The notes under the pieces: model-generated
Told to the model about the DNA's origin: nothing
The model's input: only the letters and a program-made list of their open reading frames with translations
Databases searched by the model: none
In this document: piece by piece, positions 19,502 through 62,682 of the stretch
Numbering within the stretch: the stretch's first letter is position 1
How the letters are laid out: every line of letters begins with the position of its first letter
Source: Elsinoe ampelina
Taxonomy: Eukaryota
Direction: 5' to 3'
Assembly (NCBI GenBank): GCA_010093995.1
Contig: ML992501.1
Span: 1,518,566-1,582,565, forward strand
Length of the DNA stretch: 64,000 bases
Translations under genes and position numbers: made by a program

Positions 19502-20113
19502 GATATGCCCAGATGTGTCCCTAACGGTCACCACGTTTTAAATGGCACTCTAGTGATATGGTAGTGTATGTAATCTTGGTATAGATCAGAGTGTCAGAGA
19601 AGGAGATTCTACTCAGCTCATGACTTTTCGTCTGTGTTCACGCACAAAGGGGTCACGTGATCAATTGCATTCTCAAAGAAAGCCGCGAATTTGAGCGAGA
19701 CGGATTCAGAAAACCCATCTGATGCGACAAAGGACTCTCCCATTGTGGAATATTGGCACTGTTTCCGATCTGTGTGTCTGCAAATGGCAACGTGGTCCGC
19801 TACGTCGCAAGAGGGAGACGACTCGGCCTCGTGAACTTGCATCTGCAGTACTTTCTGACTAGGCCAGCTCTCGCGCGGGCATATCGCGGGTCGAACACAT
19901 GTTCTACCGGTTTGCAAGAAGATGACATAGTCCTGTATTGATCTCCAAGGTGTGTTGTTGCTGATTCTTGTTGCTGATGAAATTGAGTGTCCGCACTCCC
20001 GAATCTGACACCGCCACATTAGTCATCCTGCACATGACGACCATGCATGGGCAGAAGCATCACACCTTTCTCAGCGGAGACTCATCCTTCAGATTCGACC
20101 AGAACACCCATCA

Positions 20114-33812: not shown

Positions 33813-36800
33813 CTTGAACGGTAAGGTATAATTAGGTATTAGGTAACAAAGCAGGAATAGAGCCTGATGAGAGAAGTCTGTGCTGTCGACTCCAGTGTGA
33901 CTATATATCACCATAGCATATGTGACATGCACTTACATGGTACCTCGAATTCGAAGATCGTTCAATAGCAACGGCCGAACATCAGATCGTTGACGCCACC
34001 GGCTGACTCACCTTGTCAGTGGCCGGAGACTTGTGTCCACGCGGCATAGCCCATCTGTCCAGATCTATATTCACATGTGCAGTCCGGAAGGGCCTCGAAA
34101 AAGCATGGAACATCAGTATAGGGCCGTAGTACACGGCAAATCAAGCCCGGCGGGTAGATAGAAACGGGGTCAGGCAAACGGTGCCCGGGCCTTCCCCAGC
34201 CAGATGCAAATGCAGTATCGATTTGAGATCAACGGTCGACGGGATGGCTGTATATACATGTTCGGTCGAGGTAACGGTCAGAGTCTGGGCTTGTGGTTGT
34301 CCGTGTCTGGCTGCTTATTGGTGATTTTCTGCTCGTAAGGACCTAGAGACTTTCCGTCTGAGACTTGAGCAGTTCGGATCGATCGGACAAATCCTGCTTC
34401 TGTGAGAAAGACTTCTGTCAAATCCGTATGACCTTCTTCTCAACATGCTGAAGGAGATCAGAGATTAGGCAAGGCTGCCCGCGAGCATGAAGCATTGTTG
34501 ATGCCGCTTGCCACCACGTCAGATACTTCGCCTGGGCCGCTCTTGCGGTCAAGCAGACCACGCACGTCCTGCTTATCGGAATGTCCAGAAGTGAAAGGAG
34601 AGCTGCAGTGTGTCAATGGGAGGTGTACGGCGTTTGGGAGGAGCTGACCCCCAGCCATCAGATCATGCCGTTGACATACAGATGTTTGGTAGAAAAGAAC
34701 AGTTGGTCAAGGCAAAAGGAACATGGGGAAGTCGTTGACGGGAGACGTCCCGTTGCGAAACGGTCGCTGCCACAAACCCAAAAACAGCTTCACAACTCAA
34801 CATTTCACAAATTCGCAGCGCGGCATGAGTACAGGGTTTTCGGGTTTAAACTGGCCACTTTTTTTTTTTTTTTTTTTTTAAAATTCTATTTAGCCGACTA
34901 GCTGCTGTAAGGCGCCATGCAGCGTGTGTACTATATACTATCTCTACTCTAGTAATTAGGGCCTTTTACTGCCTCTGGATTATACAATCTAGTAGTTAGT
35001 AATAGAGAGCTAGGAGGACCTTCTATCTACCTTCTTTGCTAGGCCCTAATCTAGCCCTTAACAGTGTAAAGAAACTATCTAGTATAACCTGTAAATGTGC
35101 GCCTTATACTTTATCTTATACCTTAAATTGTTATATAAAAAGTGCTATATTAACTGCTCTAAACTAATCTAGGAGGTTTATTTACCTTATGAATTAAATA
35201 GCCCTATAGAAGTAAGCCCTTATGCCTACTAACTCTTACTAGGCTAGAGGCTATATAGTAGTACTCTAGACATCTACGTAGATGTCTCTATAGATATAGT
35301 ACTTAGTAAGTATATAGTGTACTAACTAAGAAGCTCTACTATATTTATAGGCTTTAGTATCTACTCTTTTAATAGAAAAAAGATAGTTATTTAGTCTAAT
35401 ATACCTAGTGTATAGTTAGATACTAACTAAAGAGAGAGGTTTTAGTAGGCTAGTATATAGAGAGAGACTTTACTTACTATTAATAGTGCTAAGTACTTAA
35501 TATAATACTCTCCCTATATCGCTAACGTTCTAAAGGTATTACTATTTGTCCTTAATAGCTTAGTTAAATGTTCTTATTACTACAGTAATAAGAGTATATA
35601 GCTAGTAAGTCTTTAGGCTATTAGAGTTAAGAGCTACTTCTTTAGCTAGCTTATTAATAGCTTCGTTGCCCTTAACGCTCTTATAGCCTAGTATCTAGCG
35701 GATTTTAACCTCTATACCGTACTATACGAGGTGCTAGTAAAGCCTAATAATTCTCCTAATTAGGTACTATACTATCTTTTACCTAGGTCTCTTAACTAAC
35801 TATATTATAGCCTAGTTATTAGTAAAGACAGTAATCTTATATACCTCTTACACTAGAGGCCTATTAACCTCGACTATTAGTTCTAGTACGAGGTAGATGT
35901 CTTATAGCTCTACTACGTAGATGTTACTACTCTAGTTCGTGCCTATATAGTGTTTACTAAGCTATTCCCTCGAGGGGATCTAAGCTATAGCTCCTACTTT
36001 GCCTTATATCTTAGAGCTATCTAAGTACGTAATAATATAGCTAGAGTTACCTCTACTAGTCCGTACTACTTTATTATGTTCCTAGATAGCGTCCTTAATT
36101 ATATTAGTAATATAGGTACCTAGTAGTACCTACTATAGGTCGATAGCCTCTATAACGTAGTCTTCTAGAGAGGAAAGTCTAGGGGGTATAATTTTAGCAG
36201 CGTAGATCTCTAGCTTATATAGTAGTACTTTAAGGTATAATCTCGTGTCTCTAGTATCTCTAATAGCTTAGAGTTCTACGTGCTAGAGTAACCCCTTTAG
36301 GTAGAGTATAGTAGATAGTAGTAGGCGCTATAGGTAGAGGTCTATAGATAAGACCCCTAGCTCCGCCTATAGCGTAGCTACTACTATAGTGCGTAACGCC
36401 TCTAATATAAGCACTAGAGCCTTATACTATAGCTAGGATAGCGTACGTACTATAGTAGTTTTAGCTCCCCTATAGCTAAATCCGCTAAAGGGAATAACTT
36501 AGGTACTATAGCTATAGATTATCTTAGGGAGTACTATAGCGTAGTATAGCTACCTTATTTACCTAAGAGAGATCCCCTAGGTTAAGGCTACTATACTAGT
36601 TAGTACTCTAATCTACTTAGTTACTCTACTTCTAACGTGTTCTAGGTATACTCTACTATTAAGCTAGGGGTCTAGAATAACGCCGAGGTGCCTATAAGCC
36701 TAGCTAGGCCTAATAGTAATAGCGGCGCTACCTTTAGTCTCGATATTAAGTAGCCTATTCGCTTTTTTCTACTCTAGTACGCGCTATCCCCTATAGAAGA

Positions 36801-39800
36801 AGTAAATTATCTTATACTTTATAGGGGCAAAGACTAACGCGTAGGTACGTGCCTACTTATTAGCTTCGCTAATTACCCTCTAGATAGAGGCAATAGTATC
36901 TACTATAGTAGCTCTAGTAGTAAGGAGACTTACGTTATTAATGTACTCTATATTGTCTATCTTACCTTATTCGATCTCTAGTAGGTCTATATTATAGAAG
37001 TAGTAAAGGATTAGGAATAGAAGGGAGCCTTATAGAATGCTAGTGTTAATCTCGTACTACTTCTAAAGTCCTTTCTACATTTTTAACTATAACTATTAGC
37101 TCTATAGCTAGCTTACTAGCTAGCTAACAATTAGAGAGTTAATTCTACATTTCTAGAGGTTATAGGGTAGTCGCTAGTAGAAGACATTATCGAATGCCTC
37201 TAACATGTTAAGCATTAGAAGTATAGTAATCTTACTCTATTACTAGGCCGCGTAGATCTATTTAGTAATAAGATAGAGAGTATACTTTATGCCTCTACCT
37301 CTCCTACTACTATAGTAGCTAAACGGTAGAAAAGAGAACCTCTCTATAGCTACTAATATTCTTCTAGCTACTATAACGTCTATTAGCTTACTAATAGTAT
37401 TAAGAAGGGCTATTAAGTAATAGCTCTTTACCTAGGAGTAGTCTAATTTACCCGGCTTATAGAGTATAACTATTATAGATTAGTAGAAGTGCTATAGGTT
37501 ACACCCTAGTTATAGCCTTATAGGTAGGCGTTAAAGATCCTTATAAGTAGGCTAGCTACTAAGTCTATTACTAGTTTATATACTCGGTTTAGTATCTAAT
37601 CTAGTCCTAGTGTATTATCTACCTTTATACCTTATATTACCTCTCTTACCTTACGCTTAACTATATTAGGGCACTTAGTAGAGTCGGGATAGTAGAACTC
37701 CTCGATGTTAGTAAGGTCTACCTCTAGTAGTGCTAGCGTAAAGACCTACTAGAGGATAGTAGCCTTAGTTACTATATCTAACTAGGGGTTACTCTATCTA
37801 TTATAGATCGCTAGGGTAAAGTCTAGTTAAATAGTACTATAGTTATTAACCTATTTACTAAGTTTCTAGAGGTAGTTAGGTTCTATAACTTAGAATACCC
37901 TATCCCTATAGTAGTTATAGAGTACTCTAGTAACAATAGACTTCTTATAGCGTATAGCGAGCTAGTATTAGATATAGTCTTCTAGGTTCTATGTCCTCTA
38001 CTAGCGCCTCTATACCGTCTTTACCTCCTATACCGCCTCTATATATTTCTAGTTCTAGCTCTATCTAGACTTACTATAGATTCTACTCTTTAGTATAGTC
38101 TACTCTACTACCTCCTCTACCGCCTATACGATCTAGTAGACTACTTCGTTAACATTGGCTATGTTATTAATTAGCCTATCTAAATCGAGGCCTATAAGCA
38201 TTTTCTAGAAGGCTAGGACGTTAGCCTTCTTCTAGTACTGCCTATTCTCTACTACTCGGAGTATAGAGTTAAAGTCGAGTACTATAATAATAGGTAGATA
38301 GTTCGATTATAGGTTATACTTCCTAGAGATGTTATATTTAATAAAGCGTTCTATAATTCGTTCTAATACAAATACTAAGTCTAGCGTTAAACTATACTAT
38401 AGTTATAAAGCTACCTCTACTAGTCTAGTAATAGTACCTAGCCTAAGGTATAGGTAGGGGTAGTATCGTTCGAATATATCCTCTACTAGGTAGTTAGCGG
38501 CCCTAGTAGTTCGTTCGTCTCGGTCTATACCTCTAGTCTATAGGTAGTAGTAGAGGTTAAAGTCCCTAAGAATAAGATATTCTTAGTTAGGCCTACCTAC
38601 TAATTCTACCTCGAGTTTAACAAGTAGGCTATAGGCTTTAAGGAAGCCTATATTGTTCCCCCTTATACTAGTGCTAGTATAGGGGGAGTTATACATATTA
38701 TAGATATATAGCTAGGTAGGGGTGCCGTTTATATAGTAGATAACTTAAAGGATAAAGTATTCTTTAGCTATATAAACTAGTAAGAGGTATTATTTCGAAA
38801 TCTACTTATTAATAAAGAAGTAGACTTTAGAGCTCTCTTATAAGTAAACTAGCTAAAAGTCTTACTTAAGTAGATAGTAAGTTATAGTAGCGTATCTATT
38901 ATAGTAGAGGTCCTAGATTATAATAATATTAAAACTCGTAATATTCGGCATACTAAATAGTAGAGCTATTACTTCGTCCTTAGACCCCCTAATGTTATAC
39001 TATATAATTTTAAGTCCTTTTAGTATGCTATTTATTAATTAACTTACTAGCCTTCTTCTACGTAGGCTTTATCTACTAGAGCGACTTATATAGCTTCGAC
39101 TCGTCTATAGATAAGAATAGATTAGAGCTAAGGTTATTGTTCTCTATATCCTATATATTAATATTAAGTATATTGTCTACGTCGGCCTATAGTTAAACTA
39201 TTTTAGTAGCAGCAATAGAGGTAATATCTAGGTTAGTAAAGACATTAAAGGTAGCCTTTTTTGCTCTTAAGTTGCTACTAATTTCCTTTAGTAGGTCTAA
39301 GTACGTCCTCTTCTACTCTCTAATCTCTAATTTAGTATAGGTTTTACTCTTACTCTTTTCCTTTAAGCTAGGGGAGTAGGATTAGTTATCTCTAGCCTTA
39401 GAGCGGCCCTTTAAAGCGCGCTAGAACTTCTTAAATTATACTATCTAGAAGTCTTCTTCTTAGGACGTCTTAGTCGCTAGGTTAGAGATACTCTCCTATA
39501 AGAGAGTAAGTTTAGAGGTTAGAATAGAGTTACTCTATCCTAACCTTAATAGTATTTTAGACACTAGCGAGGTAAGATCTAACGCTAGCTCTAGCTAGAA
39601 GAGCTTTATTATAGCTAGAGCCTTTATCTATTCTATCTTTATCTTTTCTTCCTATTTAAACTTATATATAGTTACCTATATATAATATTTACTATAGTAG
39701 CGGCAGTATAAGGGCTTACTATCGTTAGCTTCTATAGTATAGGCGTTAATATTATATTTAGTGCTAGCGCACTTACTATATGTTTCGGGATTAATATATT

Positions 39801-40752
39801 AGGTTCTAATATAGCTATATTAGTAGCACTTTAGACATTGTTTAATCTAGTAGCTATATAGGTACCTTTCGGTCCTATACTTACTACTATTCTAAGTAAT
39901 CTACTAAGCTATAATTACCCTGTTTACGTCCTTAGATTTAGTAAATTCTACTACTAAGGTAGAAGCTTTCTTCTCTTTACTAAACTTAGTAAGCTAGTAA
40001 ATATACTTAATAACTATATTACCTATAATAAGCAAGTTTTCGGCGCAGAGCTAGGCTACTATCCCTACTTAATCGGCTAGATTAACTGTCCGAACGGGGA
40101 CCTAGTAGAGGATAGCACTAAAGGTAGATATAATAACTATAGCTAAAGGCCTTAGGCTTTTAGCCTACTCGCTATACTAGGGTTACTTAAGAAGCTTAGC
40201 TTTCCTAGCGGTAGTAGTAAAGAACTAGAGGTCTCTAGACTTAAGTATATATACTAACTATAGCTTAGTACCTTATACTATAGGCTCTATCTTTGCTAGT
40301 TACTTATTAGCTATTTCTAGAAGTTCCTTTTAGAGGTTAGCTATTCTATTCCCTAGTCGCTAGGTATACGCTAATTGCGCGTTATTTAGCTTAATAATAA
40401 GCTACCTAGCTAATAGGTAAAAGGTGTCCCTAGCTAGCTAAGATCCTAATAGTAGCGAGCTAAGGGATAGTAGTAATTCTTAAGGGCTAGAAGCTACTAT
40501 TTCGGCCTACGTCTTAGTAGTCTATTTAAATAGGGCAGCGGTGAATTATAATGTTTTAATGTCCTTATAGATAGATTCTAGCTTTATTTCGATATTCTTT
40601 ATTAATAGTTAAATTAAGACCTTATAGAGGTAGCTAATAATAGAAGATAATAGCTTCTAAAAGACTTTAAATAAAATAGCTTACCCTTTTATTTTCCTAA
40701 TAGAAATAGTATAGTAGTTAATAGAATTAATGTCCTATTTAATTCTAGAAGC

Positions 40753-40955
40753 TGTTAAGAATATAGCTCTCTCTAGATAATTAGGCTATAAAGTTATATA
40801 ACCTTAAGTTATATAATGCTAAGGCCTAGAGATTTATAGCTGTTCTTTCTTCTAGTAGATAGACTCCTTTTAATCAATTAACTCGTCTATTACCTAACTA
40901 GTGTACGATTAGTTCTATATAATATTCTACTCCTAAACGTGCCTTCTACTTAACA
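40753..40955 (+). repeat. Copia 5' LTR
   Basis: TG...CA ends; near-identical direct repeat at 51853-52055. Confidence 0.92.
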
Positions 40956-43900
40956 GGTTATAAGCCTAGAGCTATAGCACAAGTATAGGATTATATATAC
41001 CGTAGTTAAGTATCTACGTTATTAAAATTAGGCCGGATTCTATTAGTATTCTCCTCCGTTCCCTCTCTATTATCTTAATCTTAGATAGATTAGTAGAGGC
41101 AGTATAAAGTGTAAAAGACTAGTTACTTAGTACATTAAGTAGGATATAATTAAGACGTCTACTATAGATTTATTTCTATAATTGTATAATAGCTACTATT
41201 TATTAGCTATAAATAACTAAACAACTTTGTTTTTATTAATTGTTTCTTCTAAGGCTAAGCTAGCCTTATTAACTATATTAACTTAAAGGTTATTAACCTC
41301 TAGAACTTAACCTTTATCTATTTATTTAATTTTTATTCTCCGCTATAGATATATTATTAATTAGAAAGCCTATAGCTAAACTTAGCTATAAAAACTACAA
41401 GCACTAGTTTAGTATAATAAAATTATAGCTTAAGATAAAAGAAGTTACCTATATCTTTAATAATAATATAGCTAATCTTAATTTACTATTATTATTAATA
41501 GCTTCTTTATTAAATATACTATCCTCCTTAACTACCTCTATACTAATTACTTAGTCCTAGTATTTACTATAGACTAGAAAGGCTAATATCTTTTATCTAT
41601 ACTAGATTAAGCTTTATATTAACTATAAGAATAACCTTCTTATCTAAGGCAAGATAAGAGTAAGGTAGGTATAGAATATACTTAAGGCTAAATATACTAA
41701 GAGGCTTATATCTATAGGTAGGTAGCTTATAAAGGAGTTCTCTAACTATACTATATTAGAGGAGACCTCTATTATAGAAGCCTAGGTATATCTAACTTAG
41801 CTAGTAAGAAGGATTATCTATATTATACCTAAAGCTAGGTAGATAGAACTCCCTATTACTAAGCTATAGTAACTTCTTAGTACTCTCCTAGAATCTTAGT
41901 AATCTATTAGAGATAGTATCGATATCTAGCCTAGGCTAGATATTAAAACTATCCTAAGTATTCTAAGAGAGAAAGAGAATTAGAGGAAGAAGCTAGATAT
42001 AGTAATATTTATAAGAGGTAGACTATAATAAGGAACTAGTAGGAGCTTAAGCTATATATATATCTTATATAAGGAACCTAGATATACTATTTCTAGGTGT
42101 CCTTGTCTCTAATAAGCTAAGAAGTATATCTAGCTATTCTATAGAGTTACTAAAAGGAGTAGCTCTATAAGGAAATAGTTACCTAAATATTAGGAACTAA
42201 TTAGACTTATAAGGTAGCTTACTAAGAGGATAGACTCTCTTAAAGTAGCTAAGTTAAAGAGGAAAGGTAAAGCCTATCTAGCTACTAAAGGAGGTCTATT
42301 ATTAATATCTCTATCTCTACTACTAGAAGTCCTTTCTAGTAATAAAGAGCTTAAGACTACAGGTTCTATATTAGAGGTTTAAGGGGCCTATTAAGCAAGA
42401 TTCGTACTTAATAGATCTAGGTTAGGGGGGGTTACCTTTAGTTATAGTTAATAGGAACTATAGTTATTAAGACTAAGAAGGGAGATAAGATAAAGGTATA
42501 GGCTCTTTATATACCTAATCTTAGTATAAATTTAGTCTCCTATTATAAGCTATACTCGGATTTAGAGGTTTCTAGAGTTCTTAATTTAAATTCTTTTCTT
42601 ATCCTTAATTAGTAGAAGTAACTATTACTTAAAGCTAGAATTTAAGGGGGAGTATATATTATCTAATTCCTCTTTAAGTAATTAGCTAATTAAAAGCCGT
42701 ATTCTAGATCTAAGCCCAGCTTAATTCTAGATCTAGCTAATTAGGATTTAGTATTCCTTACTACCTAGCCTATAATTATATTATAGACTAAGTATATATA
42801 TCTAACCTAGGATAAGTAATAAGAGAATCTTATTAACTTAGGACCTAATAACTCTAAGATAGAGTATTAGCTCTAGTATAGGAGATTTACTTACCTTAGG
42901 ATTAAGAAGCTTAAGGATCTTTATAAAGTTATAACTCTTAAGAAACCTATTAACTTAAACTATAATCTATCTATTCTATATAAGGTCTATTCCCTTATAA
43001 AGATAAGAAATAGAAGAGGTAAAACCTTATAAAAAAGACCTAAGGTTCTTTAGCTTATCTATATAGATATCTATAGTCCTATTAAAGTAAGTAAGGAAGG
43101 ATTTAGATACTTCCTTAAGCTTATAGATAGCTACTTAAGAATAATATAGATTATACTACTTAAGATAAGAGATAAAGCCCTATAAAGGCTTATTAAGTAA
43201 AAGCTAAGAGTTAAGAAGGAGAGTAATACTAAGGTTAAGGTTACTAGATTAGATAATACTAGTAAACTTAATAAGATCCTAAAGTAGTAAAAGCACTAAG
43301 AAGACATCTATTACATAACTACTAAGCTATATAATTTAATTTAGAATAGACTAGTAGAGAAAGGTATCTAAACCTTAGAGAATAGTATAAGAGCAATACT
43401 TAAGGACTTAAAGATGCTAAATAAGTTCTAGCCTAAAGTAGTTTAGGTAGATATATATCTAAGGAATAAGATAGTAACTAGACCTATAATTAATAATAAG
43501 TAAGTTATATCTATTAAGGCCTATATAGGCATTAAGCTATTAGTTAATTATATTAAGGTCTAGAGCTATAAGGTATATACCTATATAAACCTAAAGTTCC
43601 TTTCTATATATAGAAGAAAAGATAAGCTTATAGACAGAGAGAGAGTAGAAGTATTCCTTAGCTATATAGATAGATCTAATAGGATATATAAGATATAGGC
43701 ACCTAATAGGAAGGTAGTAATTATATTACTAAATATTAAATTCTCTAAGTTTAAGAAAGGTAGTAATATTAATCTTAGTATTAGAATTAATACTATAAGT
43801 AATTAAGTACTAGTTAGGAGACTAGTTAGTAGACTAACTTAGATTTAGACTAAGGTTAGATCTAGAATAGACTAACTAAATTAGCCTATTTAGAATAAAG

Positions 43901-44422
43901 TACCTATAGGGAGAATCTTCTTACACATTAAGATCCTAAGAGTTAACCCTATTAACCTTATAGATTTCTAACATAGAAAAGAGCTAATAGTTTAATCTTT
44001 ACTAACTAACTATATAAGTTAATTACTTAAAAGATTAAGAGATAATAACTCTAATAATAAAGGCCCTAAAGCTAAGCACTATAGAGCTTTTATTACTAAG
44101 TATATTAATTAGTAAGATAAGGTTAATAAGATTACTATAATGGCCTCTATTAAGTAATATGTCCTAATCCTAAGGGACTACTATAAGGCTATTACTAATC
44201 TAGTATAGGGAAGTAAATAGTAGAAAGTAATTAATATAGAGCTTAATACTCTATACTTAAATAATATATAGAAAGAGGTTATTCCTCTAAAGGGATCTAA
44301 CTTAGTAACATCTAAATAGGTCTTTAATATTAAGTATAACATAGATAGCTCTATTAAAAAGTTTAAGGCTAGACTAGTTACTAGAGGCTTCTTATAGAAG
44401 TATAGTATTAACTATAAAGACA

Positions 44423-44657
44423 NNNNNNNNNNNNNNNNNNNNNNNNNNNNNNNNNNNNNNNNNNNNNNNNNNNNNNNNNNNNNNNNNNNNNNNNNNNNNN
44501 NNNNNNNNNNNNNNNNNNNNNNNNNNNNNNNNNNNNNNNNNNNNNNNNNNNNNNNNNNNNNNNNNNNNNNNNNNNNNNNNNNNNNNNNNNNNNNNNNNNN
44601 NNNNNNNNNNNNNNNNNNNNNNNNNNNNNNNNNNNNNNNNNNNNNNNNNNNNNNNNN
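44423..44657. other. Assembly gap (235 N) within the Copia RT
   Basis: Run of N. Confidence 0.99.
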
Positions 44658-45007
44658 GTTATAAGGGATAGACAATAAGGCACCTTAAGACTTAATTAAA
44701 CCTACTATATAGATAATATACTATAGAGGCTTAATATAACCTCTAATAAGGTTACTCTAATAAAGTAGCTAATAGACAATAAGCTTCCTTAAAGAGCTTA
44801 GGAAGATAATATAAAGTATAGTAGAACTAAGTACTTATATACTATTAGAAGCTAGATATACCTTAGTACCCTAATAAGGCTAGATACTACCTTTGCCTTA
44901 GGAAGGCTAAGTTAGTTTATAGTAGATCTAATAGATAGTTATACTATTAAAATAAAGAGAATATTAAGATATATTAGATTAACTAAAGATCTTAGTATTG
45001 TATTTAG

Positions 45008-51000: not shown

Positions 51001-51269
51001 GTAGAATAACTAGATAGTTTAATAGCTCTATTACTCGGTCGTAGTCGTTTCGAAGTCTCGATATAGTAATTATAACTAGTAAGACAAGAGGTTAATTACG
51101 TCTATTTATTAAGATATTAAGACTTAGAAGAAGAAGAAGAAAAGCTAGTATATAAAGTACGTGTAATATTAAGAGTAGAGCAGCTAGAAGCCTAGGCTAC
51201 AATACTAAGATTACGTAACTAATCTAAACTAGATCCTAACTAAATCTAGTTCGTATCTATCTTACATTA
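45008..51269 (-). mobile_element. Ty3/Gypsy (chromovirus-like) LTR retrotransposon 1, nested in the Copia pol region, RIP-mutated
   Basis: 203-bp LTRs 45008-45210 and 51067-51269; TSD TTTAG (45003-07, 51270-74); minus-strand PPT next to 45211. De-RIPped motifs: protease FIDTGA (~49185), RT IYLDD (~47845), RNase H TDAS and YDKELL, integrase WQHITMDFVTGLP (~46340), chromodomain-like end (~45300-45450). Confidence 0.92.
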
Positions 51270-51852
51270 TTTAGAAGGAATAGGAATAAGACTCTTAAGA
51301 GATACTCTAATTTAGACTATACCTTAGATAAGTTAGATAGAGTCTCTATCCTTAGATATATCTTTATACTTATAGGTAGTTCTATTAGCTAGATAAGTAG
51401 GAAGTAGAAGTCTATTTTAACCTCTACTATAGAGGCTAAATATATAGTAATATACTCTTATATAAAGAGATTACAGTTCCTATCTTAGTTACTAAGAGAT
51501 ATAGGCTATTATAAGATAGTTAGGCAATTACTATAGAGGCTAACTATAAAGGAATCTTAGAAAGCAATAATAAGATTACTCTTTACTACTAGGATTAATA
51601 GTAATAACTAAGTAGCTCTTTTACTCGTAAAAGAGCTATATACTTATAAAAGGGCAAAGCACATTAATATCGCTTACTACTACGTTAGAAGGCTATAGAG
51701 GAACTAGAGGATTTAAGTAGAGTTTATAAGGACAGTAGACATAGTAGCTAATAGGTTAAGTAAGCTATTATAAGGTTAGATCTTTATAAGGTTTATAAAG
51801 CAACTTAGCTTATTATTAACCTAATAGCTTATCTATAGGAGCTAAGTAGGAG

Positions 51853-52055
51853 TATTAAGAATATAGCTCTCTCTAGATAATTAGGCTATAAAGTTATATA
51901 ACCTTAAGTTATATAATGCTAAGGCCTAGAGATTTATAGCTGTTCTTTCTTCTAGTAGATAGACTTCTTTTAATTAATTAACTCGTCTATTACCTAACTA
52001 GTGTACGATTAGTTCTATATAATATTCTACTCCTAAATATGTCTTCTACTTAATA
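51853..52055 (+). repeat. Copia 3' LTR
   Basis: Direct repeat of 40753-40955, preceded by a purine-rich PPT-like stretch and followed by the TSD GAAGC. Confidence 0.92.
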
Positions 52056-52280
52056 GAAGCGTATATAGATAGATTTAAGAGTTTTTCGCCTATATAAGGC
52101 TAGTCTTTTCTAGTACCTATAATTTTCTAGTCTTAAAAGATATAGAATCTAGTTCTAAATCGAATAGTACTAGAAAAATTAATAGTTTAATAGATGTAGT
52201 AATAAATTCCTCCGAAAAGTAATTTTGTAAAAAATGTTATAGGTGTTTAAACTAGCTACCTTATAGCTTAGCGACGCTAA

Positions 52281-55200
52281 TGTTACGAACTAGTAGGACA
52301 GCTAGAGCGCGGGGATGTTAGGACTAATTAAACTGCTAAGGTTATTACGTAACTCGGCCTAATATTTACCTAGTTCTCTATCTTCCCTAGCGGCTCTACC
52401 TCTAAAACTATAGAGCGTATAGGTTACTAGCGGACGTGTACTCTATACTACTTCTAACTCTCGCTATAGAGTATATAGAGTATATAGAGAACGTAGTAGA
52501 GAATATATATATATAGAAATAGTCCTTACCTTATATAAGTACTATAGTTAACCTTGTCTAGATAGCGAACACTAGTATTACTAAGGCTAGCCTTTATAAT
52601 ACTATCTAATTGTACTTTATTATCTATAAGATATACCTTCTCTAACTCTTACCTTAGTGCTATACTACTATAGAAGTAGAACTACCTCGTTCTTAGCTTA
52701 GCTTAGACTACTAGCGTAGACTATATTTAGACAGTTTATAACATTTTAACTACCCTTACTATAGTATAGCATACTATAAGGTTAATAAGTAACTCTTGCT
52801 CTAAGTTACTATTAGTATCTTTAATTACTAGTAAGCTAGAAAAGCTTACTATTAATAATATGTCTACTACTAGTTTAACCTCGGGTAAATATAGAAGGTC
52901 TCTTAGTATAGGGGAAGAATAGAGTAAGCCTAAGTTAGAAGTAGAACTCTTCTATAAGAACTGCGCCTACTTAAGGCGCTTCCTTATTTAACTTAAAGCC
53001 TTCTTCGCTCTAGAGGGGGACAAGTACGCTAACGATGTAGTAAAGGTTCTCTACGCTAGGATATACCTTAAAGGCGCTACCTTCGGGTGGTTTAAGCCTT
53101 ACATAAGTAGCTACCTAGATAGATAACTAAGCCTAGATATAAAGGCTATCTTTAAGAGCTTTAGTATCTTTTAGGCAAAGATTAAGCAAGTCTTTAACGT
53201 ATCTAATAAGAAATATATCGCTATAACAAAGATCTAACAACTATAACAACGTAGGTCTATAGCCTAGTACTATTTCTAGTTCTAACAACTCGTAATACAC
53301 CTAGATTAGGATAATAGTACTAAACATTTAGTATTCTACTAAGGACTAAGCGACTTAGTTAAAGACTAAATAATACCTAAGCTACCTAATAGCCTTTAGG
53401 AATTAGTAGACACTATAATTGCTATCGATAATAGACTTTACAAACGACATATAGAATGTTATAGAGGATATAAAGTAAATACTAGATATATATATTCCTC
53501 TCGAAACTATAGAGACTCTATAGAACTTAACGCTATATACGAAGGCTGCCCCTTATAGGTATAAGGCCGAAGCTATAGAGGAAAGTTCCTTAGTAGAAAA
53601 GAGAGAGAGAAGTATAAATAAGACAATCTATATTTTAAGTGTAAAAGACCTAGGTATCGGGCTAGAGACTACTAATAAGGGGTGCTAGCCGATAGATTAT
53701 ATATAATAGTTACTAGGCTAGTAGAAAAAAAGGCTAATACTACTATAGAAGACCTAATAACCTTTAGCGTAGGTAAGGAAATATAGAAGGAGTCTATAAC
53801 AACTTAAGAGGTAATAGAATCCTCTCTAGATATTATACTTAATATCTCTACGACTAATAGCAAATAACAAAGCTAATATGTAACACTATTATAGATAGTA
53901 TACTATAATAACTCTTATTATATTTACTTATTAGATAAGTAGGGATCTAGTTAGTTTCTATATAAGCTATCTAAGTATAGGTAACTAACGAAATAGCTAG
54001 ACTAGGAACCTAACCTAGAAGAGCTCTCTATAATTAGTAGTAATAGTAACTAACCTTAGAAGATAGTTAGCAACAATTACTAATATATAATTATCGAGAC
54101 GAAGTATTAGGACGTAAGTACTATATAACTATATAGTAGCCTTACCTTTAGCTCTTATAGTAAACTATAAGGAAAGGTATATTATATATCGCTCTAGAAA
54201 TGTACAAATCTAGATTGTAAATGGTACTATACTATCTACTTATATAATGTACTTAGAGAAGACGCTATTAGTCTTAAATACACTATAGACTTCTTAGTAA
54301 TCGAAATAGACAGTACTATTCTCTATAGCTAAGTACAAGAATATACTTAGTATAGCCTTACTAACTATAACTATACTAGAGACAGTAGTAATAAAGAGAA
54401 ATATAATAAAGAATACACTAAATAACTATACTATAATAACATAGATAAAGACTTATCTAACAATAAAGACAACGATATACTACTACTAAGCGGACAACTT
54501 AAGGCATACTTTATAGAGATATAGAGAAACTATATAATAATATATATCTACTACTAGAATAGGACACAATAAGACAAATCTACTTAACTTACGTTTATCT
54601 TTAATACTAATATATAGCTATACCTAGAGGGAATAGTTATACTAATATAGGTGTGTAATACCACTTAGTATAACTAATAGAGGATTATTAAACTTTATAG
54701 TCATTAAGGAACTTAAGCACTAGAAGTCTACCTTACTATATTAAACAATAATAAGACACGACTAGCCTAGTAGATATAGTACTAACAATAGATATATACG
54801 GGAAGGAATTAACTACTTATCTAAGGGGCTATAATAATAAAAAACTAACTAGTTGTTGCCTAATAAGGCAAGACAATAACGCTAGCTAAAGCCTTAATAT
54901 AATAAAGATCTATATATTAAATTACTTTATACTAGAAGCCTAGATACAAGGAAATAAGGTAAAAGCGATAATAGATTTAGGAGCTAACTATAGCTATATC
55001 TCTATAACAATTGCTAATTAGCTTAAACCTTATTAACATTAGAAGGAGTTACCTTACCTACTTACTATAGTAGATAGAACCTCTATAGAGAAGAACGGGA
55101 AAGTTACTTAGGAACTATAAAACGTTATAATTTAAATTAGGACATACACGGAGAAATAATTAATTAATATAGTTAATATGTAGTATAATATAGTACTTAG

Positions 55201-58200
55201 TATAGACTAGCTTTAATAACACAATCTAGACGTAGACTAGATTAAAGAAACACTCGAATTTCCTAAGTATAATTATAGGACATAGGGAGTATAATTAGCT
55301 CTATAGATACTAACTATAAGAATAGTATAGGTACGACTAATAGTTAGGGCTATTACTAGCGTAAGTAATTAAGTACTTCTACTAGAATATAAAGACTTTA
55401 AGGACTTATTTAAAGAAAGGAAAGGTATTATAGCCTTACTCTAATATAAACTATAGAATTATAAAATACCTTTTAAAGAGGGTAAATCCCTAATATACTA
55501 TTATAGTCTTATACTACTATCGAAATAAGAGGAGAATGTCCTTAAGAACTATATCGATAAGCACTTATTTAAAGGATTTATACGACTATTAAAATTACCT
55601 ATTATATACGGAGTGCTTTTTACACCTAAAAAGGATAGAATGTTATAAATATATATTAATTACTAGAAACTTAATACACTTACTAGGAAAAATTGCTATT
55701 CCTTACTAAGGATTAACAAACTTTAAGACCGACTACTTAGAGCTAAATAGTTTACTATAATTAATATTAGAGATGCCTATTATTAAGTACAAATAAAGGA
55801 GAGTAAGGAGTTAAAAACGGCTTTTAGGATATAATAGAGTCTATATAAGTACCTCGTTATGCTCTTTAGGTTAACTAACACTCCTATAACCTTCTAAGAG
55901 TTAATTAATAATACTCTATAAGAATACCTTAATAACTTTGTCTTAGTATATTTAGACAATATTATTATCTTCTTAAAGATATATAATAAACATATAGGAT
56001 ATATTTATAAAGTACTATAGAAACTAAAAGAGAAAGACCTACTAGTAAAACTCTCTAAGTATAAGTTTTATAAGTACAAGATACAATTTCTAAGCTATAT
56101 TATATCTACTAAGGGTATTAGACCTAATCTAAAGAAGATTAAGTTAGTAAATAACTAGCTAGAACCTACTATAGTTAAGGAGGTTTAAGCACTACTAGGA
56201 TTCTTTAACTACTATTATAAGTTTGTTAAAGGATTTTCTAAGGTAGCTACGCTAATATCTAACCTTACGAAAAAGGAAACTAGCTTTATCTTTAACAAAA
56301 AATATAGATAGGCCTTTAAGAAGCTAAAGTTTAGACTTACAATAGTACCTATCTTAGTACTCTTCGACTTAGACTAATAAGCACTACTAGAAATAGATGC
56401 CTTAGACTTTGCAATAGAAGCGTATCTAGCGTAGAAGGACATAGAAGAATAACGCTACCTAATTATATACTACTTACGAAAAATAACTAGACCTAAACTT
56501 AACTACGATATATATAATAAGAAATTACTTATAATTATAGAAGTATTCCGTAAGTAAAGAGTATACCTAGAAGGAATAACCTTACCTATATAAGTCTATA
56601 CCGACTATAAGAACCTTCTATATTAGACAATAACTAAGGTTCTTAATAGATAATAGGTCCGATAGTTAGAAACACTTATAAGCTATAACTTCTAGATCTA
56701 CTATATTAAGGAATTAGAGAACAGCGGAGTAGATGCTCTTAGCTACTAGCTAGATTACTTAAAAAACATAACAATAATAGAGGCCTCTATACTAAAGTAG
56801 TAGGATAGCGCTCTAGTCTATAAGTACCCGAAGGTAGAGTAGTTATATAGCCTTATCTAGGAGCTTATATAAGAATAGAAGAAAGAAGTTATTTAAATAT
56901 ACTATAATAACCTAATAGCGGAACATAGTAGGATTAATAAGACTATTAAGCTTATTATATAAAACTACCTATAGAAAGAACTCCGAAACGACATTAAGAC
57001 ATATATTACTATATATAATACGTGCTATAAGTCTAAGCACTTACGATATAAGCTATATAGCCTACTATAACTCTTACTACTACCTAATAAACTATAGTAA
57101 TTAGTTACGATAGACTTTATAGAACTCTTACTACTATTAGAAGAGCCTCTTATAGGTGTAAAGTATAATAGTATTCTAGTCCTAGTAGATAGATTTACGA
57201 AGTATTACTACTTTATACTATATAAGATAATAGTAACTACTAAGGATATAGCCTTTACCTTCCTTCGAATAATTGTTTTATAATATAGAGTACTATAAGA
57301 CCTAATAACTAATAGAGATAAGCTATTTATATTACAATTCTAGTAATTATTTATAGACCTACTAGAAGTTAAATATAAGCTATCGACCTTCTTTTATCTA
57401 TAAACGGACGGACAAACGAAATAGGCAAATTAAGTACTAGAGTAATATCTATATTACTACCTTAACTACAAGTAGAATTCTTAGGTAACGCTATTACTAT
57501 TCGTAGAGCTTGCTGTTAATAATAGGAAGTTAGCAAATAGAATTTTACTATTCTACGTAAACTATAGAATATACCTAGATCTATACTATAACATACTTAG
57601 AATTAAGCTAATATCTAAGGATACTAATATACTAGTAGCTAATATTAAGAAACTATACGACTAGCTATACTACGATATAGTATTTATATTACAAAGAATA
57701 GTATAGTTTACTAACTAGAAGAGAATTACAGGACTAATTCTAAAGGAGAGAGAGAAGGTTTATCTCCTTAGTAAAAATATTAAGACTAAAAGACTAAGTA
57801 AGAAACTAGACTATACTAAGCTAGGACTTTTTAAAATCCTAGAAAAGAAAAATAAGAACATATATAAACTAGAACTACTAAGACATATAAGGATCTATCT
57901 AGTCTTTTATATATTACTACTAGAGAAAGTACTATAGAATACTATACCTAGACCTATTAAACTAGATAAAGAAACATAGGAGCTATAGTATAAGATAGAA
58001 AGAGTTTTACATTATAAACTTATAAAAGAAAAACACTACTATCTTATTTACTAGAAGGGACATTAGTATAGCGAAGTAATATAGAAACTAGAGAAGTACC
58101 TTACCTCGTAAGTAATTCTAGATTACTAGATTAAGAACCTATCCTAAGTAAACCGACTAGATAGACCTAGCACTTCTAATACTAAACAAAAACGAGAATA

Positions 58201-59301
58201 CTTAAGAAAGATCGCTTAGGTAATAGAAGCACCTTAATTGTTACTAAATAAAGAACTCTAATCGAAGTTAGGCATAAATAATTACTAGTTCTATAGAAGG
58301 ACAGGATCTACTAATAATAGTATTTCCTTCTACTCTAAGACTTAAATATAAGTCTTCTCTAGAGAGATTACTTTCTCTACCTTATTCTCTAACTTTTGTA
58401 TCTCCTTACGGAGCTAAAGCTTATTACCTATAGCTCTCTAACGAGCCTCCTTTACCTTTTTATAAGCCTCTTTAGCCTCTTTTCTAGTAGCCTCTACTAT
58501 AATTAACTCCTTTTATAAACGGATATACTTAGACTATAAGCACTACTATTTCGATTTTGTTACCTAAATATTATAACTTAAGTAGTTACTTACGACATAC
58601 TAGCTATAGATACTCGACTAAATATAGACCTTATAGTCTAGCCTCTTTAATTTGCAATAAGAATAAGCCTATAGTATATTAGTTCCGAATAGTTTAATAA
58701 ACTCTAAGAGATTCTTTCGGGCAGATATACTAGATTTACTATACCTTCGACAACTAGAAGGCATATTTAGTATATAGTATAAGAAGATAAGGAAGGACAC
58801 TTACTTATTAGGACAACTCGATTAAAGGAGGAGAGTAATATTACAAACTAGTAGGACAGCTAGAGCGTAGAGATGTTAGGACTAATTAAACTACTAAGGT
58901 TATTACGTAACCTAGCTCGATATTTACCTAGTTCTCTATCTTCTCTAGTAGCTTTACCTCTAAAACTATAGAGCGCGTAGGTTACTAGCGGACATATACT
59001 CTATACTACTCCTAACTCTCGCTATAGAGTATATAAAGCATATAGAGAATATAGTAGAGAATATATATATATAGGAATAGTCCTTACCTTATATAAGTAC
59101 TATAGTTAACCTCGTCTAGATAGTAAACACTAGTATTGCTAAGGCTAGCCTTTATAATACTATCTAATTGTACTTTATTATCTATAAGATATACCTTCTC
59201 CGACTCTTACCTTAGTACTATACTACTATAGAAGTAGAACTACCTCGTTCTTAGCTTAGCTTAGACTACTAGCGTAGACTATATTTAGATAGTTCGTAAT
59301 A
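52281..59301 (+). mobile_element. Ty3/Gypsy (chromovirus-like) LTR retrotransposon 2, inserted in the DNA transposon left TIR, RIP-mutated
   Basis: 463-bp LTRs 52281-52743 and 58839-59301; TSD GCTAA (52276-80, 59302-06); PPT AAAGGAGGAGAG before the 3' LTR. De-RIPped motifs: gag CCHC (~53630), protease IDSGA (~54970), RT YLDD (~55950), RNase H ETDASD (~56390), integrase, chromodomain YLIHWKG...TWEP (~58040). Confidence 0.93.
58216..58764 (-). pseudogene. RIP-mutated antisense extra ORF of Gypsy element 2: six-Cys Zn-cluster-like motif plus coiled coil (~182 aa)
   Basis: ATG at 58764 in frame with TAA at 58216. De-RIPped reading is approximately CSYCKSKGLDCKVHVQSGICGQCVVSNHSGC followed by an E/K/R-rich helix. 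Confidence 0.6.
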
Positions 59302-59445
59302 GCTAACTAACCTCTCGTTACTAAAATTGGCAGGCTAGAGGTCGAGATTAGTTATAGCTAGATAGCTCTTAATATAGCTAAATCTAGTTAATTTTTAAAG
59401 CTTAAAAAAGGTGTAATAGCTATTAGTTATTAGCTATTAGCTATT

Positions 59446-60402
59446 ATAGTAAACTAGAGAATCTTAAAGGCTAAGCTAGCTAATCTACTCTATCTCCTCT
59501 CTAACGGCTTTAGTAATAGAGTAATTACTATAACACTTACTATCTCTCGAGCGACTATTTATAATATCTACCTATCCGTTAAGTTCTTTAGATCTCTCTA
59601 TCTACTACTAGAGGTACGCCTCTAGTATACTTACTATATTACTCCCTTTATAGAGGACTAGCTCTTAGCCTGCCTTACTAATATACTAACTACTTATCTT
59701 AACGAGCTTTAATTGTAGCTACTAGAAGTATATAGCTTAGATATTAGCCTTACGTTAATATAGGAGGCTCTCTACTACTAGAGGTAAAGTTAGAAAGTTA
59801 TAAAGAAGAAGGTAGCTAAATAAGATAAGGTACTACGTAGTGCTTAGAGTATAAGGTATAAGAGCTAGCTAGTCGATAAGATTATATACTTCGATAAATT
59901 AGCTTATAATAAATATACTAGCTAAAGGAGGTATAGCTAGTTATCTATTAGCCTTAACTACATAGATAAGTAACTAAAGACTTAGTCTAAAAGGTAAAGT
60001 GTCCTTCTAGCTATTATAACTAAGAGCTATCTCGAAGGTACCCTTATCTACTACGGATCGATTACTAGCTTTATCTTCTAAGATTAGCTTAAGTATACTA
60101 TCTTACTATAGCTTAAGCCTAGCTCGATTATAGTATTAGATAATGCGTTAATCTACTATAACGAGGAGATTTAAAGAATAGTATAAGAGTATAGATTATA
60201 CCTTAAATACCTACTACTATATTTACTAGATTTTAACTCTATAGAGGAGAGCTTCTTAGTACTAAAGGCGTAGGTAAGGAGATACTATTACCTAGCTACT
60301 AGATAGCTCTTTTACTAATTTCTTACTTATAGAGTTATAGAGGTAGGCGGCAAAGGCGCTAGAGGTCAATTTAAGTATTGTAGCTATAACGTAATTAAAT
60401 AG
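59446..60402 (+). pseudogene. RIP-inactivated Tc1/IS630 DD34E transposase (~318 codons)
   Basis: One frame with HTH ISRATIY, YLDELQ, YFDES (D1 ~59893), VLDNA (D2 at 60139) and de-RIPped YLPPYSPDFNPIEE with 34 residues between D2 and E. Internal stops are TAA/TAG derived from CAA/CAG/TGG. Confidence 0.88.
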
Positions 60403-60434
60403 ATAGATAGGGAGAGTAAGGTTAAACTCTTCCT

Positions 60435-62125
60435 TTAATACTAAGCCTTTATTAAAAATTCTATACTACCTTTACTAACGATAGTAACGATTTATTTAGC
60501 TATATTAACCTCTTCTAGAGTGCTCTCTTTAACCTTAGTATATAGAGAGTATATCTATTAACGCTTAAACTTTAATATCTACTACTTTAGACGGATTAAA
60601 AGACTATCGGTAAAGAGCTAGTTATTACGCTACTAAGAGGCTAATATCTAGTAGATACTCTTAAGGTTATAATCTTTACTTTATAGCTATATAAAGATTT
60701 AATTAAGCGCTCGAGCGTGCCGTTTAAAGGCCTTCTTCTTTAAGAGAAAGGCTTTAAAGTCGAATAGTACCTTACTTAAATCGAATTGTAAGCTAATTAG
60801 TAACAATAGAGGAGTAGCTTATATAGCTAGTTAAGTAGGTAGACTACTTTAAGTATTTATATTATTTATATAAACTGTCGAAGGTAAGGTATTTAAGGCT
60901 AAAGTTAGTAGCAAATCTAGTACTCTTTTAACTATAGTAGCTCTAGCCCTCGACTTTATATAGTTAAGCTAAACGCTTACTATAGCTAGAGGTAAGTCGA
61001 TTAAACCTCTACTATTACGGATTGTAGCACTCTAAGTTATCTTAGCTATAGCATTAATAGGGAAGTACTCTTAGTACTAGTTACGCTAATATAAGCCTAT
61101 CCGATTTACATACTAGATATTATTATACTACCACCTATTAAAGCTTAGCGTAGTATTACTTAACACGCTAGAGAGGCTAGATTACTAGCTTAAAGTTACG
61201 CTCCCTCGAGCTTATTACTATAACTATAACTATAACTATAACTCTAGAGGCCTTAGTATTAACTAATCCAGTAGTAACGCTAGTAGTATATTAGCTTTAA
61301 CTAGCATAGAGAGTAGCCTAATAGCATAAGGAGAAATAACTTATAAGGTTACTATAAGTATAGTTAGAGTAGCTAGCTTAGTAAAGGTAACTATAAGAGA
61401 GATAGAGAGTTATAAGTAGCCTCTATTAATCTAGCTTATAAGCTTATCTACTAGCTTTTCTATATTAGCTAGCTTATCTACTATAAGTTTAAAACTCTTA
61501 TTTTTAGCTAGCTTAAAGTAAGTAGCTATTAAGCTTATATTCTCTAGCTTTAAGAGGTTATCTAGTACATCTTTTACCTTACTCTTTAACTATAATACTA
61601 GCTAACTATAATCTAGTACTAATAGTCCCTTTAGTACTTACTTGTTATAGAACTTCTTACTATTTATACTAGCTATTAGTAGTACCTCTATCTCTATCTC
61701 TTTCGGAACTAGTAGTGTAGCTTATATAGAAGGAGAAGAATTAGCCTCTATTAAGGGACTTACCTTAGCCTCTACTAGTAGTGTTAGTAACGTAGTTATT
61801 CTCTAGCTAAAGGGCCTAATATCTTAAGACTAAAGAAGATTACTTACTTAACTTATAAGAGAAGTAAGAAGGCTAATATTATAAGGGGGCTAAGGATAAT
61901 CTACTACTACCTTCTCTACCTTACTCGCTATAATACTAGAGTTATAGCTAAAGGCTTAGCTTACTCTATATACTAGCTAGATGTAATAATAGTATAGAGA
62001 AGGTAACGGAGTTACTACTAGCCTCCTATTTAACCTTAGCGTAACACTAGACAGTTAATAGCCTCGAGGCTAAGGGGTCTTAAAGCGGTTAGTAGAGGGC
62101 ACTATAAAGAGTAACACCTTTATAG
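60435..62125 (-). pseudogene. RIP-mutated second (passenger) gene of the DNA transposon, convergent with the transposase; unknown product
   Basis: ~1.7 kb between the transposase stop and the right TIR with coding-like minus-strand stretches, a (GTTATA)4 repeat at ~61218-61241 compatible with former Gly-Arg repeats, and a GTATGT...TAG intron-like segment near 61114-61050. Boundaries approximate. Confidence 0.45.
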
Positions 62126-62682
62126 TAAGCACAAATTGGTAGTGAAAAATTGATTAGCTAATTAGATTGCGCGCTTCTTTAGCTTTAACTATTAATATCA
62201 ACGACGACGACGACAATTACAAGCCTCTATTAATCTCGACCTTATACGCTTCACCGCCTGCCAAATTTTGGTGCACGAGGGGCGGTCAGCGTCGCCAAGC
62301 CATGGGGTGGCCAGTTTGAACCCGAAAACCCTGTATAAGCGAAGTCTTTGTATCGAACGGTCTTTGACATCTGAATGGCCGCCACGTCGGCATTGCCGAA
62401 GGTATCTCTACTATCTGCCTCGATATTTACAACGTACATCCCGCTTCAACGCATCGTTGGCTCCATAGGGCGATGGAAGGCATGTGCCATCGACCACTCT
62501 CGGACCGGGACATCACGTCACGCTATAGAGACTCTCAAACTCTCTCGGCCGTATGCTCGCGTGTCACACACGTGCGACTTGCCATGCCTCGCAAGGCTGA
62601 CCGATTCAAGCCATGCTCGAATACATGCCGTGAAGATGATGCTGAGCTCAATATTACAACGATTGTCACGCCACGTGCCGCT

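Follow-up and report, generated by a model that had tools for sequence, protein, structure and literature searches.

A Tc1/mariner-type transposon enlarged by nested, RIP-mutated retroelements in Elsinoe ampelina

The 64-kb stretch of Elsinoe ampelina DNA analysed here (contig ML992501.1, positions 1,518,566 to 1,582,565; hereafter the window) is gene-dense, with a GC content of about 52%, and contains a single AT-rich block at ~34.9-62.2 kb in which GC falls to about 30%. This block, which we call the island, is very probably a Tc1/mariner-type DNA transposon that has grown by the nested insertion of four retroelements, namely a long interspersed nuclear element (LINE), a Ty1/Copia element and two Ty3/Gypsy elements (Gypsy-1 and Gypsy-2), all of them wrecked by repeat-induced point mutation (RIP). 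The most likely cause of this growth is that insertions into a dead transposon are harmless and persist.

Anatomy of the island

The element proper occupies 34832-62333, that is, 27,502 nt between the two copies of a TA target-site duplication. Its parts are listed below in the order in which they lie in the window, with the strand where one applies.

34830-34831: TA target-site duplication, left copy; base comparison of the ends.
34832-34858, plus strand: Tc1/mariner-type piece 1, the outer 27 nt of the left inverted repeat; compared with the reverse complement of 62307-62333.
34844-34858: 15-bp duplication of the LINE, left copy; the last 15 nt of Tc1 piece 1.
34859-40752, minus strand: 3' part of the LINE; poly(A) tail, reverse transcriptase (RT) and RNase H remnant, upstream open reading frame (ORF) remnants.
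40748-40752: Copia duplication GAAGC, left copy; LINE sequence.
40753-45007, plus strand: 5' part of Copia; long terminal repeat (LTR), integrase remnant, RT pieces, 12 copia-type polyprotein relatives.
40753-40955 and 51853-52055, plus strand: Copia LTRs; 203 bp, 196/203 identical (96.6%).
~43000-43743 (integrase remnant), 44122-44421 (RT start), 44423-44657 (N gap) and 44832-44999 (RT end), plus strand: Copia interior; tblastn with polyprotein P0008.
45003-45007 and 51270-51274: Gypsy-1 duplication TTTAG; identical.
45008-51269, minus strand: Gypsy-1, 6,262 bp; LTRs, RNase H matches on the minus strand.
45008-45210 and 51067-51269, minus strand: Gypsy-1 LTRs; 203 bp, 189/203 identical (93.1%).
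51275-52055, plus strand: 3' part of Copia; RNase H remnant and 3' LTR, P0008 alignment.
52056-52060: Copia duplication GAAGC, right copy; identical to the left.
52061-52244, minus strand: 5' end of the LINE, 184 nt; placed solely by its two bounding duplications.
52245-52259: 15-bp duplication of the LINE, right copy; Tc1 positions 13-27 with two RIP-type changes.
52260-52280, plus strand: Tc1/mariner-type piece 2, element positions 28-48; 16/21 against right-arm positions 28-48.
52276-52280 and 59302-59306: Gypsy-2 duplication GCTAA; identical, the left copy being the last 5 nt of Tc1 piece 2.
52281-59301, plus strand: Gypsy-2, 7,021 bp; LTRs, RVT_1, RNase H, integrase SH3.
52281-52743 and 58839-59301, plus strand: Gypsy-2 LTRs; 463 bp, 426/463 identical (92.0%).
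59307-62333, plus strand: Tc1/mariner-type piece 3, the body; DDE_3 match, DD34E spacing, right inverted repeat at 62307-62333.
62334-62335: TA target-site duplication, right copy; base comparison, and contigs of a second organism begin matching exactly there (see below).

These boundaries and sizes account for the whole element, as 3075 + 6078 + 15 + 5036 + 5 + 6262 + 5 + 7021 + 5 = 27,502, and no base is left over. Without its inserts the Tc1/mariner-type element is 3,075 bp long. The LINE measures 6,078 bp, and Copia, which spans 40753-52055 including Gypsy-1, has a size of its own of 5,036 bp counting the N run. An earlier reading of the letters by themselves (the sequence-only reading) had described four retroelements nested in one DNA transposon, and in this it was correct.

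The outer borders are sharp. On the left, unique DNA ends in ...GCATGAG TA and is followed by CAGGGTTTTCGGGTTTAAACTGGCCAC; on the right, the reverse complement of the left 27-mer is followed by TA and then by TAAGCGAAG. The inverted ends are identical at 26 of 27 positions, with C on the right where the left has T. The inverted repeats of 27 bp and the TA duplication therefore bracket the island as had been claimed, the range given at the time (34830-62335) including both TA copies.

Removing the inserts on paper rebuilds a left end that mirrors the right one. When 34832-34858 is joined to 52260-52280, the resulting 48 nt agree with the reverse complement of the right end at 42 positions, compared with 30 of 48 when the pieces are left unjoined, and all six mismatches are of RIP type (T or A on the left, C or G on the right). 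Extending the joined end with the sequence from 59307 gives 89 identities over 108 aligned positions, with one 9-nt gap and a few 1-nt gaps, and a weak mirror-image match is present ~130-165 nt in from each end. Of the 54,452 21-mers in the island, only two agree with right-arm positions 28-48 as closely as 52260-52280 does, and from this count they must be that piece and the right arm itself. The prediction that excision of the LINE and Gypsy-2 would restore the left end of the transposon is thus borne out.

Excision of Gypsy-1 can be followed at the protein level. In the alignment of P0008, a 1,290-aa Copia polyprotein, residue 1124 has its last base at 44999, and the match resumes with residue 1126 at 51270, in the duplicated TTTAG. 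Removal of Gypsy-1 with one TTTAG therefore loses no residue and keeps the frame. The insertion site lies between the RT and RNase H coding regions of Copia, and other Copia copies run across it (see below), so the claim that Copia is restored in this way holds. For the excision of Copia from the LINE, also claimed earlier and accepted here, the evidence is the GAAGC duplication, whose two copies are identical.

The duplications themselves are unlikely to be chance matches. A repeat search of the island returned exactly three long direct-repeat pairs, which are the LTRs of Copia, Gypsy-1 and Gypsy-2, and these were trimmed to canonical ends. The 5-mers then flanking each pair (GAAGC, TTTAG and GCTAA) are identical in all three cases, where two random 5-mers from the island are identical with P ~0.0037. 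For Copia and Gypsy-1, boundaries shifted by -1 or -2 still give identical 5-mers, and the repeat is really 7 nt. The two extra nucleotides arise because RIP changed the last bases of the LTR to TA, which is also the dinucleotide preceding the duplication. As the unmutated 5' LTR of Copia ends in CA, the canonical LTR end, the duplication was set at 5 bp.

The two copies of the LINE duplication, GTTTAAACTGGCCAC (34844-34858) and GTTTAAACTAGCTAC (52245-52259), lie 17.4 kb apart and agree at 13 of 15 positions, with both differences being transitions. The probability that two random 15-mers of the island differ at no more than two positions is ~4e-5.

Order of the insertions

The duplications also give the order. 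That of the LINE consists of Tc1 positions 13-27 and that of Gypsy-2 of Tc1 positions 44-48, so both elements arrived later than the transposon. GAAGC is LINE sequence and TTTAG lies in the Copia coding region, which places the LINE before Copia and Copia before Gypsy-1. The order is therefore Tc1, LINE, Copia, Gypsy-1 along one line and Tc1, Gypsy-2 along another, with the place of Gypsy-2 among the LINE, Copia and Gypsy-1 left free.

Divergence between LTRs is of no help here. Of the 58 differences over the three pairs, 57 are RIP-type transitions, and the LTRs of the nested Gypsy-1 are less alike (93.1%) than those of its host Copia (96.6%), the opposite of what the nesting order would give. 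LTR divergence in this island is set by RIP, not by time. As RIP dominates the differences, LTR identity cannot order the insertions, and for the same reason neither RIP load nor LTR identity was accepted as a guide to the order of the LINE and Gypsy-2. What had been presented as a fully ordered history is therefore a partial order, its pairwise steps standing on the duplications while Gypsy-2 floats; that Gypsy-1 came last does not follow, since Gypsy-2 could be younger.

Only 21 bp separate the entry sites of the LINE and Gypsy-2, at 34858/34859 (Tc1 27/28) and 52280/52281 (Tc1 48/49). Both sites are in the left inverted repeat, no more than 48 nt from unique DNA. If two insertions were placed uniformly over 3,075 bp, they would fall 21 bp apart or closer with a probability of ~1.4%.

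Composition, RIP and genomic setting

RIP is the C-to-T mutation of duplicated DNA at CpA that takes place during the sexual cycle, and it is usually recognised by a TpA/ApT ratio above ~0.89 and a (CpA+TpG)/(ApC+GpT) ratio below ~1.03. Across all 27 island bins of 1 kb, TpA/ApT is 1.68-2.51, compared with 0.49-1.03 in the flanks, and (CpA+TpG)/(ApC+GpT) is 0.06-0.28, compared with 1.03-1.46. GC per 1-kb bin is 0.26-0.38 (0.20 in the bin with the N run), against 0.48-0.58 elsewhere. Both indices, together with the transitions between repeat copies, establish that the island has been affected by RIP, whereas neither flank carries the RIP indices. From this type of composition the host was taken to be a filamentous ascomycete.

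No ATG-to-stop ORF of at least 60 aa is present inside the island. Over stretches of 200 nt, GC is normal nowhere but in one pocket at 0.43 and at the right end; the island therefore holds no embedded gene. The window contains no tRNA genes. The outermost right end of the transposon (62234-62333) has a GC of 0.56-0.62, and its last ~100-130 nt are barely changed by RIP. In the outer left piece 1 of 27 bases is changed, whereas the scrap enclosed by the LINE and Gypsy-2 has 5 changes in 21 bases, and the Tc1 scraps appear to have been mutated together with their repeated neighbours.

The nearest neighbours of the island are as follows.

31944-33932, minus strand: ORF of a PAN-domain protein; nearest in the left flank.
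62686-63999, minus strand: ORF of an MFS transporter; nearest in the right flank, with the island near its 3' end.

With the island subtracted, the spacer between these two genes is ~1.25 kb. Elsewhere in the window, GC skew is strongly negative (-0.36) in the bin 20001-21000, where GC is 0.58.

Identity of the elements

For protein-level identification the broken frames of all elements were read through, with X placed at each stop. In the body of the outermost element, Pfam DDE_3 matched in one of six frames (nt 59881-60282; E 3.5e-7, 30.6 bits against a cut-off of 28.6). The remnant has 34 residues from the second D to the E, which we take to be the spacing of Tc1 (DD34E); its frame contains many stops, and the first D was not located. 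With its TA duplication, inverted repeats and DD34E-type transposase, the outer element belongs to the Tc1/mariner superfamily.

Members of this superfamily are typically ~1.3-2.4 kb long with one gene, and at 3,075 bp the island element is longer than is usual. The transposase remnant covers ~59450-60420, and ~1 kb is thus recognisable, while ~1.7 kb (60450-62165) has no recognisable content. A six-frame Pfam search of 60450-62165 gave no match, and the 860-aa read-through of the body had no relative of 473-1505 aa among 8000 scored candidates, shorter proteins not being searched. Over 60448-61887 stops are rarest in frame +1 among the six, but a second gene there is unsupported, as phmmer with this frame found no match among 1.84 billion representatives. 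A short-seed repeat search of the body returned low-identity AT-rich matches only and no bounded insert. When the body was compared by blastn with the whole window, the outer inverted repeat was found along with two minor matches, a 58-nt self-palindrome at 61482-61539 (80%) and 52 columns at 79% to 37094-37142 in the LINE. Tandem repeats in the body are trivial. A (TATAAC)5 microsatellite is present at 61213-61243, and repeats at 61208-61251 were skipped in the comparison with public runs described below. Three origins are conceivable for the unexplained part: non-coding DNA specific to the family, a fifth insert, or a sequence of which RIP has driven the other copies beyond 80% divergence. 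The earlier description of one 3-kb transposon is thus not supported as it was worded, since only ~1 kb of the body is recognisable and a fifth, unrecognised insertion is possible.

The LINE was recognised by homology. A search with its RT region gave six relatives at E <= 0.001 (best 2.9e-34) among 8000 scored candidates, of which 6/6 carry PF00078, 5/6 PF14529, 4/6 PF03372 and 2/6 PF00075. By tblastn, residues 534-1147 of the protein P0001 align to 37476-35632 over 632 columns (E 4.8e-24), covering an RT and RNase H remnant that is colinear with a 1,329-aa ORF2-like protein also carrying endonuclease-family domains. The poly(A) tail is read as 21 T on the plus strand at 34859-34879, directly after the left 27-mer, and there is no repeat pair at the ends of the element. 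Taken together, a poly(A) tail beside a variable-length duplication, the lack of LTRs and an ORF2-type RT identify this element as a LINE. Pfam matched none of the six read-through frames, and for the endonuclease region (38262-39132) no alignment to the relatives was obtained.

For Copia, 12 relatives were found at E <= 0.001 among 7999 candidates, with PF00665 in 12/12 and PF07727 in 11/12; four are named copia-type, retrovirus-related Pol or TNT 1-94. P0008 aligns colinearly by tblastn, with residues 468-701 at 43000-43743 and 761-863 at 44122-44421 on the left of the N gap, and 1069-1124 at 44832-44999 and 1126-1271 at 51270-51770 on the right. We take the first of these stretches to be integrase from the usual Ty1/Copia domain order. 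The 5' LTR reads TGTTAAG...TTAACA. LTRs of the TG..CA type, a 5-bp duplication and an integrase that precedes an RVT_2-type RT point to a Ty1/Copia element. Pfam was silent on the Copia read-throughs (0/9 plus-strand frames) and on eight short LINE and Copia segments even at E <= 1 (0/8). Since the homologue searches found both elements, this silence is taken as RIP damage rather than absence.

On the minus strand of Gypsy-1, Pfam matched RT_RNaseH_2 (2.8e-19) and RT_RNaseH (2.6e-14) at aa 1259-1390, followed below the cut-off by SH3_Tf2-1 at aa 1860-1919; there was no RVT_1 match in this element. In Gypsy-2 the matches are RVT_1 (9.7e-13; aa 1119-1274), RT_RNaseH_2 (3.1e-15) and RT_RNaseH (3.5e-14; RNase H at aa 1338-1468), Integrase_H2C2 (aa 1532-1586) and SH3_Tf2-1 (5.3e-7; aa 1824-1883). 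The order in Gypsy-2 is gag, RT, RNase H, integrase, with gag and Integrase_H2C2 below the Pfam cut-off. Both are Ty3/Gypsy elements, with two LTRs, a 5-bp duplication and domains in the order typical of that group.

Copies in public sequencing runs

Contigs from four public runs were compared with 44658-63999 of the window at a likeness of at least 80%. Two runs (X1 and X2) are from the probable source sample and two (X3 and X4) from one other organism (organism B, 0.05 share). Without difference, source-sample contigs cover 52027-52307, with the Copia/LINE, LINE/Tc1 and Tc1/Gypsy-2 junctions, 59268-60228, with the Gypsy-2/Tc1 junction, and 60213-63999, with the Tc1/flank junction; these contigs are not independent of the assembly.

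Several contigs run across the Gypsy-1 site. Their joint, which has 7 nt of slack, is placed at 45000->51268; this is equivalent to 45007->51275, or Copia continuing as if Gypsy-1 were not there. It occurs in two contigs of X1, one of X2 (plus one at 45002->51270), one of X3 and one of X4, the last two with 49 letters on the shorter side. A loose contig end at 45007 also continues like the sequence after 51275. These contigs are probably other copies of the Copia family that lack Gypsy-1.

The depth of the contigs, when summed, amounts to 155-173 over the flank and 33,000-123,000 over the retroelements. In the Tc1 body it is ~500-660 at 59493-60137, ~1,800-2,000 at 60138-60782 and 160-184 at 60783-62717. 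The retroelement families are thus abundant, and the transposase part (59493-60782, at 3-12x) has a few relatives. For the right 1.55 kb of the transposon no other copy was present at this likeness in the public-run contigs.

In organism B the Gypsy-2 family reaches a depth of ~200-1,270 in most Gypsy-2 bins, compared with 2-4 in the flank, whereas the Copia and Gypsy-1 families are scarce, with one Copia copy lacking Gypsy-1. Two contigs of this organism (360 and 408 nt, ~88% alike) start matching at 62334, where the right TA begins; their match to the right flank covers 62334-62606, and they extend 91 and 128 letters upstream of 62334. They look as an empty site would, and this related organism seems to lack the island.

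Proposed growth of the island

We propose that a Tc1/mariner-type transposon entered a TA in the ~1.25-kb spacer between the PAN-domain gene and the 3' end of the MFS-transporter gene. Later a LINE entered behind Tc1 position 27, where target-primed reverse transcription left a 15-bp duplication, and Gypsy-2 entered after position 48 by means of its integrase, leaving one of 5 bp. Copia entered the 5' region of the LINE, and Gypsy-1 then entered Copia. Every element is, or once was, in a repeated family, so that RIP brought the block to ~30% GC and ruined all reading frames. In a gene-dense region a dead transposon may be the only harmless target, so that only insertions there persist, and each RIP-mutated insert would enlarge the safe target further. 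Persistence in a dead transposon is the most likely reason for the pile-up of insertions, as we infer from this setting. Active targeting of AT-rich or heterochromatic DNA may contribute.

Several points weigh against this account. The evidence comes from DNA sequence, and heterochromatin is suggested by a sequence signature that accompanies it in other fungi. Pfam missed the LINE and Copia, whose identity rests on word-seeded homologue searches and tblastn, and the LINE endonuclease region and 184-nt 5' piece match nothing. About 1.7 kb of the Tc1 body (60450-62165) is unexplained, and no second copy of its right half was found among the public-run contigs. The joints across the Gypsy-1 site are weak single contigs with short sides of 28-49 letters, and such joints below 95 likeness are often repeat-derived. 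The empty site in organism B is a candidate, judged from the match that starts at 62334. Finally, there is an N gap inside Copia.

It is possible, though on the present evidence rather unlikely, that targeting rather than tolerance explains the nesting. The Gypsy integrases, by way of a putative chromodomain, and the LINE endonuclease would then seek out RIP-mutated, H3K9-methylated AT-rich DNA, and the first transposon would nucleate the island. All four retroelements do lie inside earlier elements, with none in the ~1.25 kb of unique spacer, and the closeness of the LINE and Gypsy-2 entry sites is in keeping with this. To the eye the integrase tails of both Gypsy elements resemble chromodomains; the Pfam Chromo domain was found in neither tail at E <= 1 (0/2). 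The target of the LINE and Gypsy-2 was a GC-rich inverted repeat a few dozen bases from unique DNA and not obviously AT-rich. The data do not separate targeting from selection, and four events allow no statistics. The proposal that the island nucleated as a heterochromatin-like block from one small insertion fits the data, but tolerance of insertions in dead transposons fits them equally well.

A less probable suggestion is that the border between a freshly silenced transposon and active chromatin, or inverted-repeat DNA as such, is a preferred landing site for retroelements in this fungus, with islands seeded from their edges. It was considered because the LINE and Gypsy-2, which have unrelated integration machineries, entered 21 bp apart.

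It is very unlikely that the two inverted ends derive from different Tc1 copies, or that a composite was built elsewhere and arrived whole. The body is uneven, with single-copy depth in its right 1.55 kb and 3-12x at 59493-60782, and the unexplained 1.7 kb would suit such an origin. However, a single TA duplication lies at the outer ends, the three pieces supply a left end, a transposase remnant and a right end once each, with sub-terminal sequence mirrored to ~110-165 nt, and in organism B the matching of the flank stops precisely at the TA. We know of no precedent for a Tc1 transposase moving a 27-kb RIP-mutated composite.

It is likewise very unlikely that a misjoin at the run of 235 N (44423-44657) in Copia, which lies just outside the stretch compared with the public-run contigs, has made the left-right nesting an artefact of assembly, because the Copia RT is colinear across the gap and three pairs of ends match over it (GAAGC with the 203-bp LTRs at 96.6%, the LINE 15-mer at 13/15, and the Tc1 TA with 26/27). 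On P0008 the gap has residue 863 at its left edge and ~1011 at its right (44658, extrapolated); the alignment runs in the same direction on both sides, and ~147 residues (~440 nt) of mid-RT are missing where 235 N stand.

Growth of a Tc1/mariner-type insertion by tolerated nesting is thus the explanation that we favour. The sequence-only reading is partly supported, being right in its anatomy and pairwise order and overstated in its full order and in nucleation.

Comparison with known systems

The closest parallel is in Leptosphaeria maculans. According to its genome account, its AT-blocks are gene-poor and RIP-mutated, with ~33% GC amid gene-rich DNA of ~51% GC, and consist of transposons inserted in one another, forming a 'nesting network' of transposable elements (Rouxel et al., 2011; PMC3105345). 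DNA transposons there were invaded in 23.3% of cases and were the invading element in 3.5%, and mid-sized AT-blocks were single DNA-transposon integrations (PMC3105345). Later insertions are described as preferentially tolerated in decayed transposons and then subject to RIP, in a 'positive reinforcement loop' (PMC3105345). The nucleation and tolerance model was thus already published for L. maculans in 2011 (PMC3105345). The present island is likewise a RIP-mutated, AT-rich nested block in which a DNA transposon has been invaded. It differs in that most L. maculans elements are truncated mosaics, whereas here every boundary and duplication survives, and in that LINEs are minor there, whereas one takes part here.

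Nested LTR retrotransposons are also found in plant genomes, such as the intergenic regions of maize, where the order is read from which element interrupts which, 5-bp duplications are seen and LTR divergence dates the layers. To our knowledge plants have no RIP. The interruption order and the 5-bp duplications of the island are alike to these, but RIP here swamps the LTR clock.

The outer element resembles the Tc1 family (DD34E, DDE_3) in its TA duplication, short inverted repeats and 34-residue spacing. It differs in its length, in the ~1.7 kb without recognisable content and in a transposase full of stops. We presume that the LINE is akin to the fungal APE-type non-LTR elements (Tad1/I-like), which it resembles in its poly(A), its long variable duplication (15 bp) and its RT-RNase H region, but an endonuclease part was not detected in the island copy.

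Significance

The locus adds no new principle and is a clean instance of a known process. Its value is that of a specimen, as it stands alone in a gene-dense region, every boundary survives and each insertion can be undone on paper. It also provides a concrete case of RIP defeating dating by LTR divergence. Should other strains carry intermediate alleles, these could form a dated series showing the growth rate of such islands.

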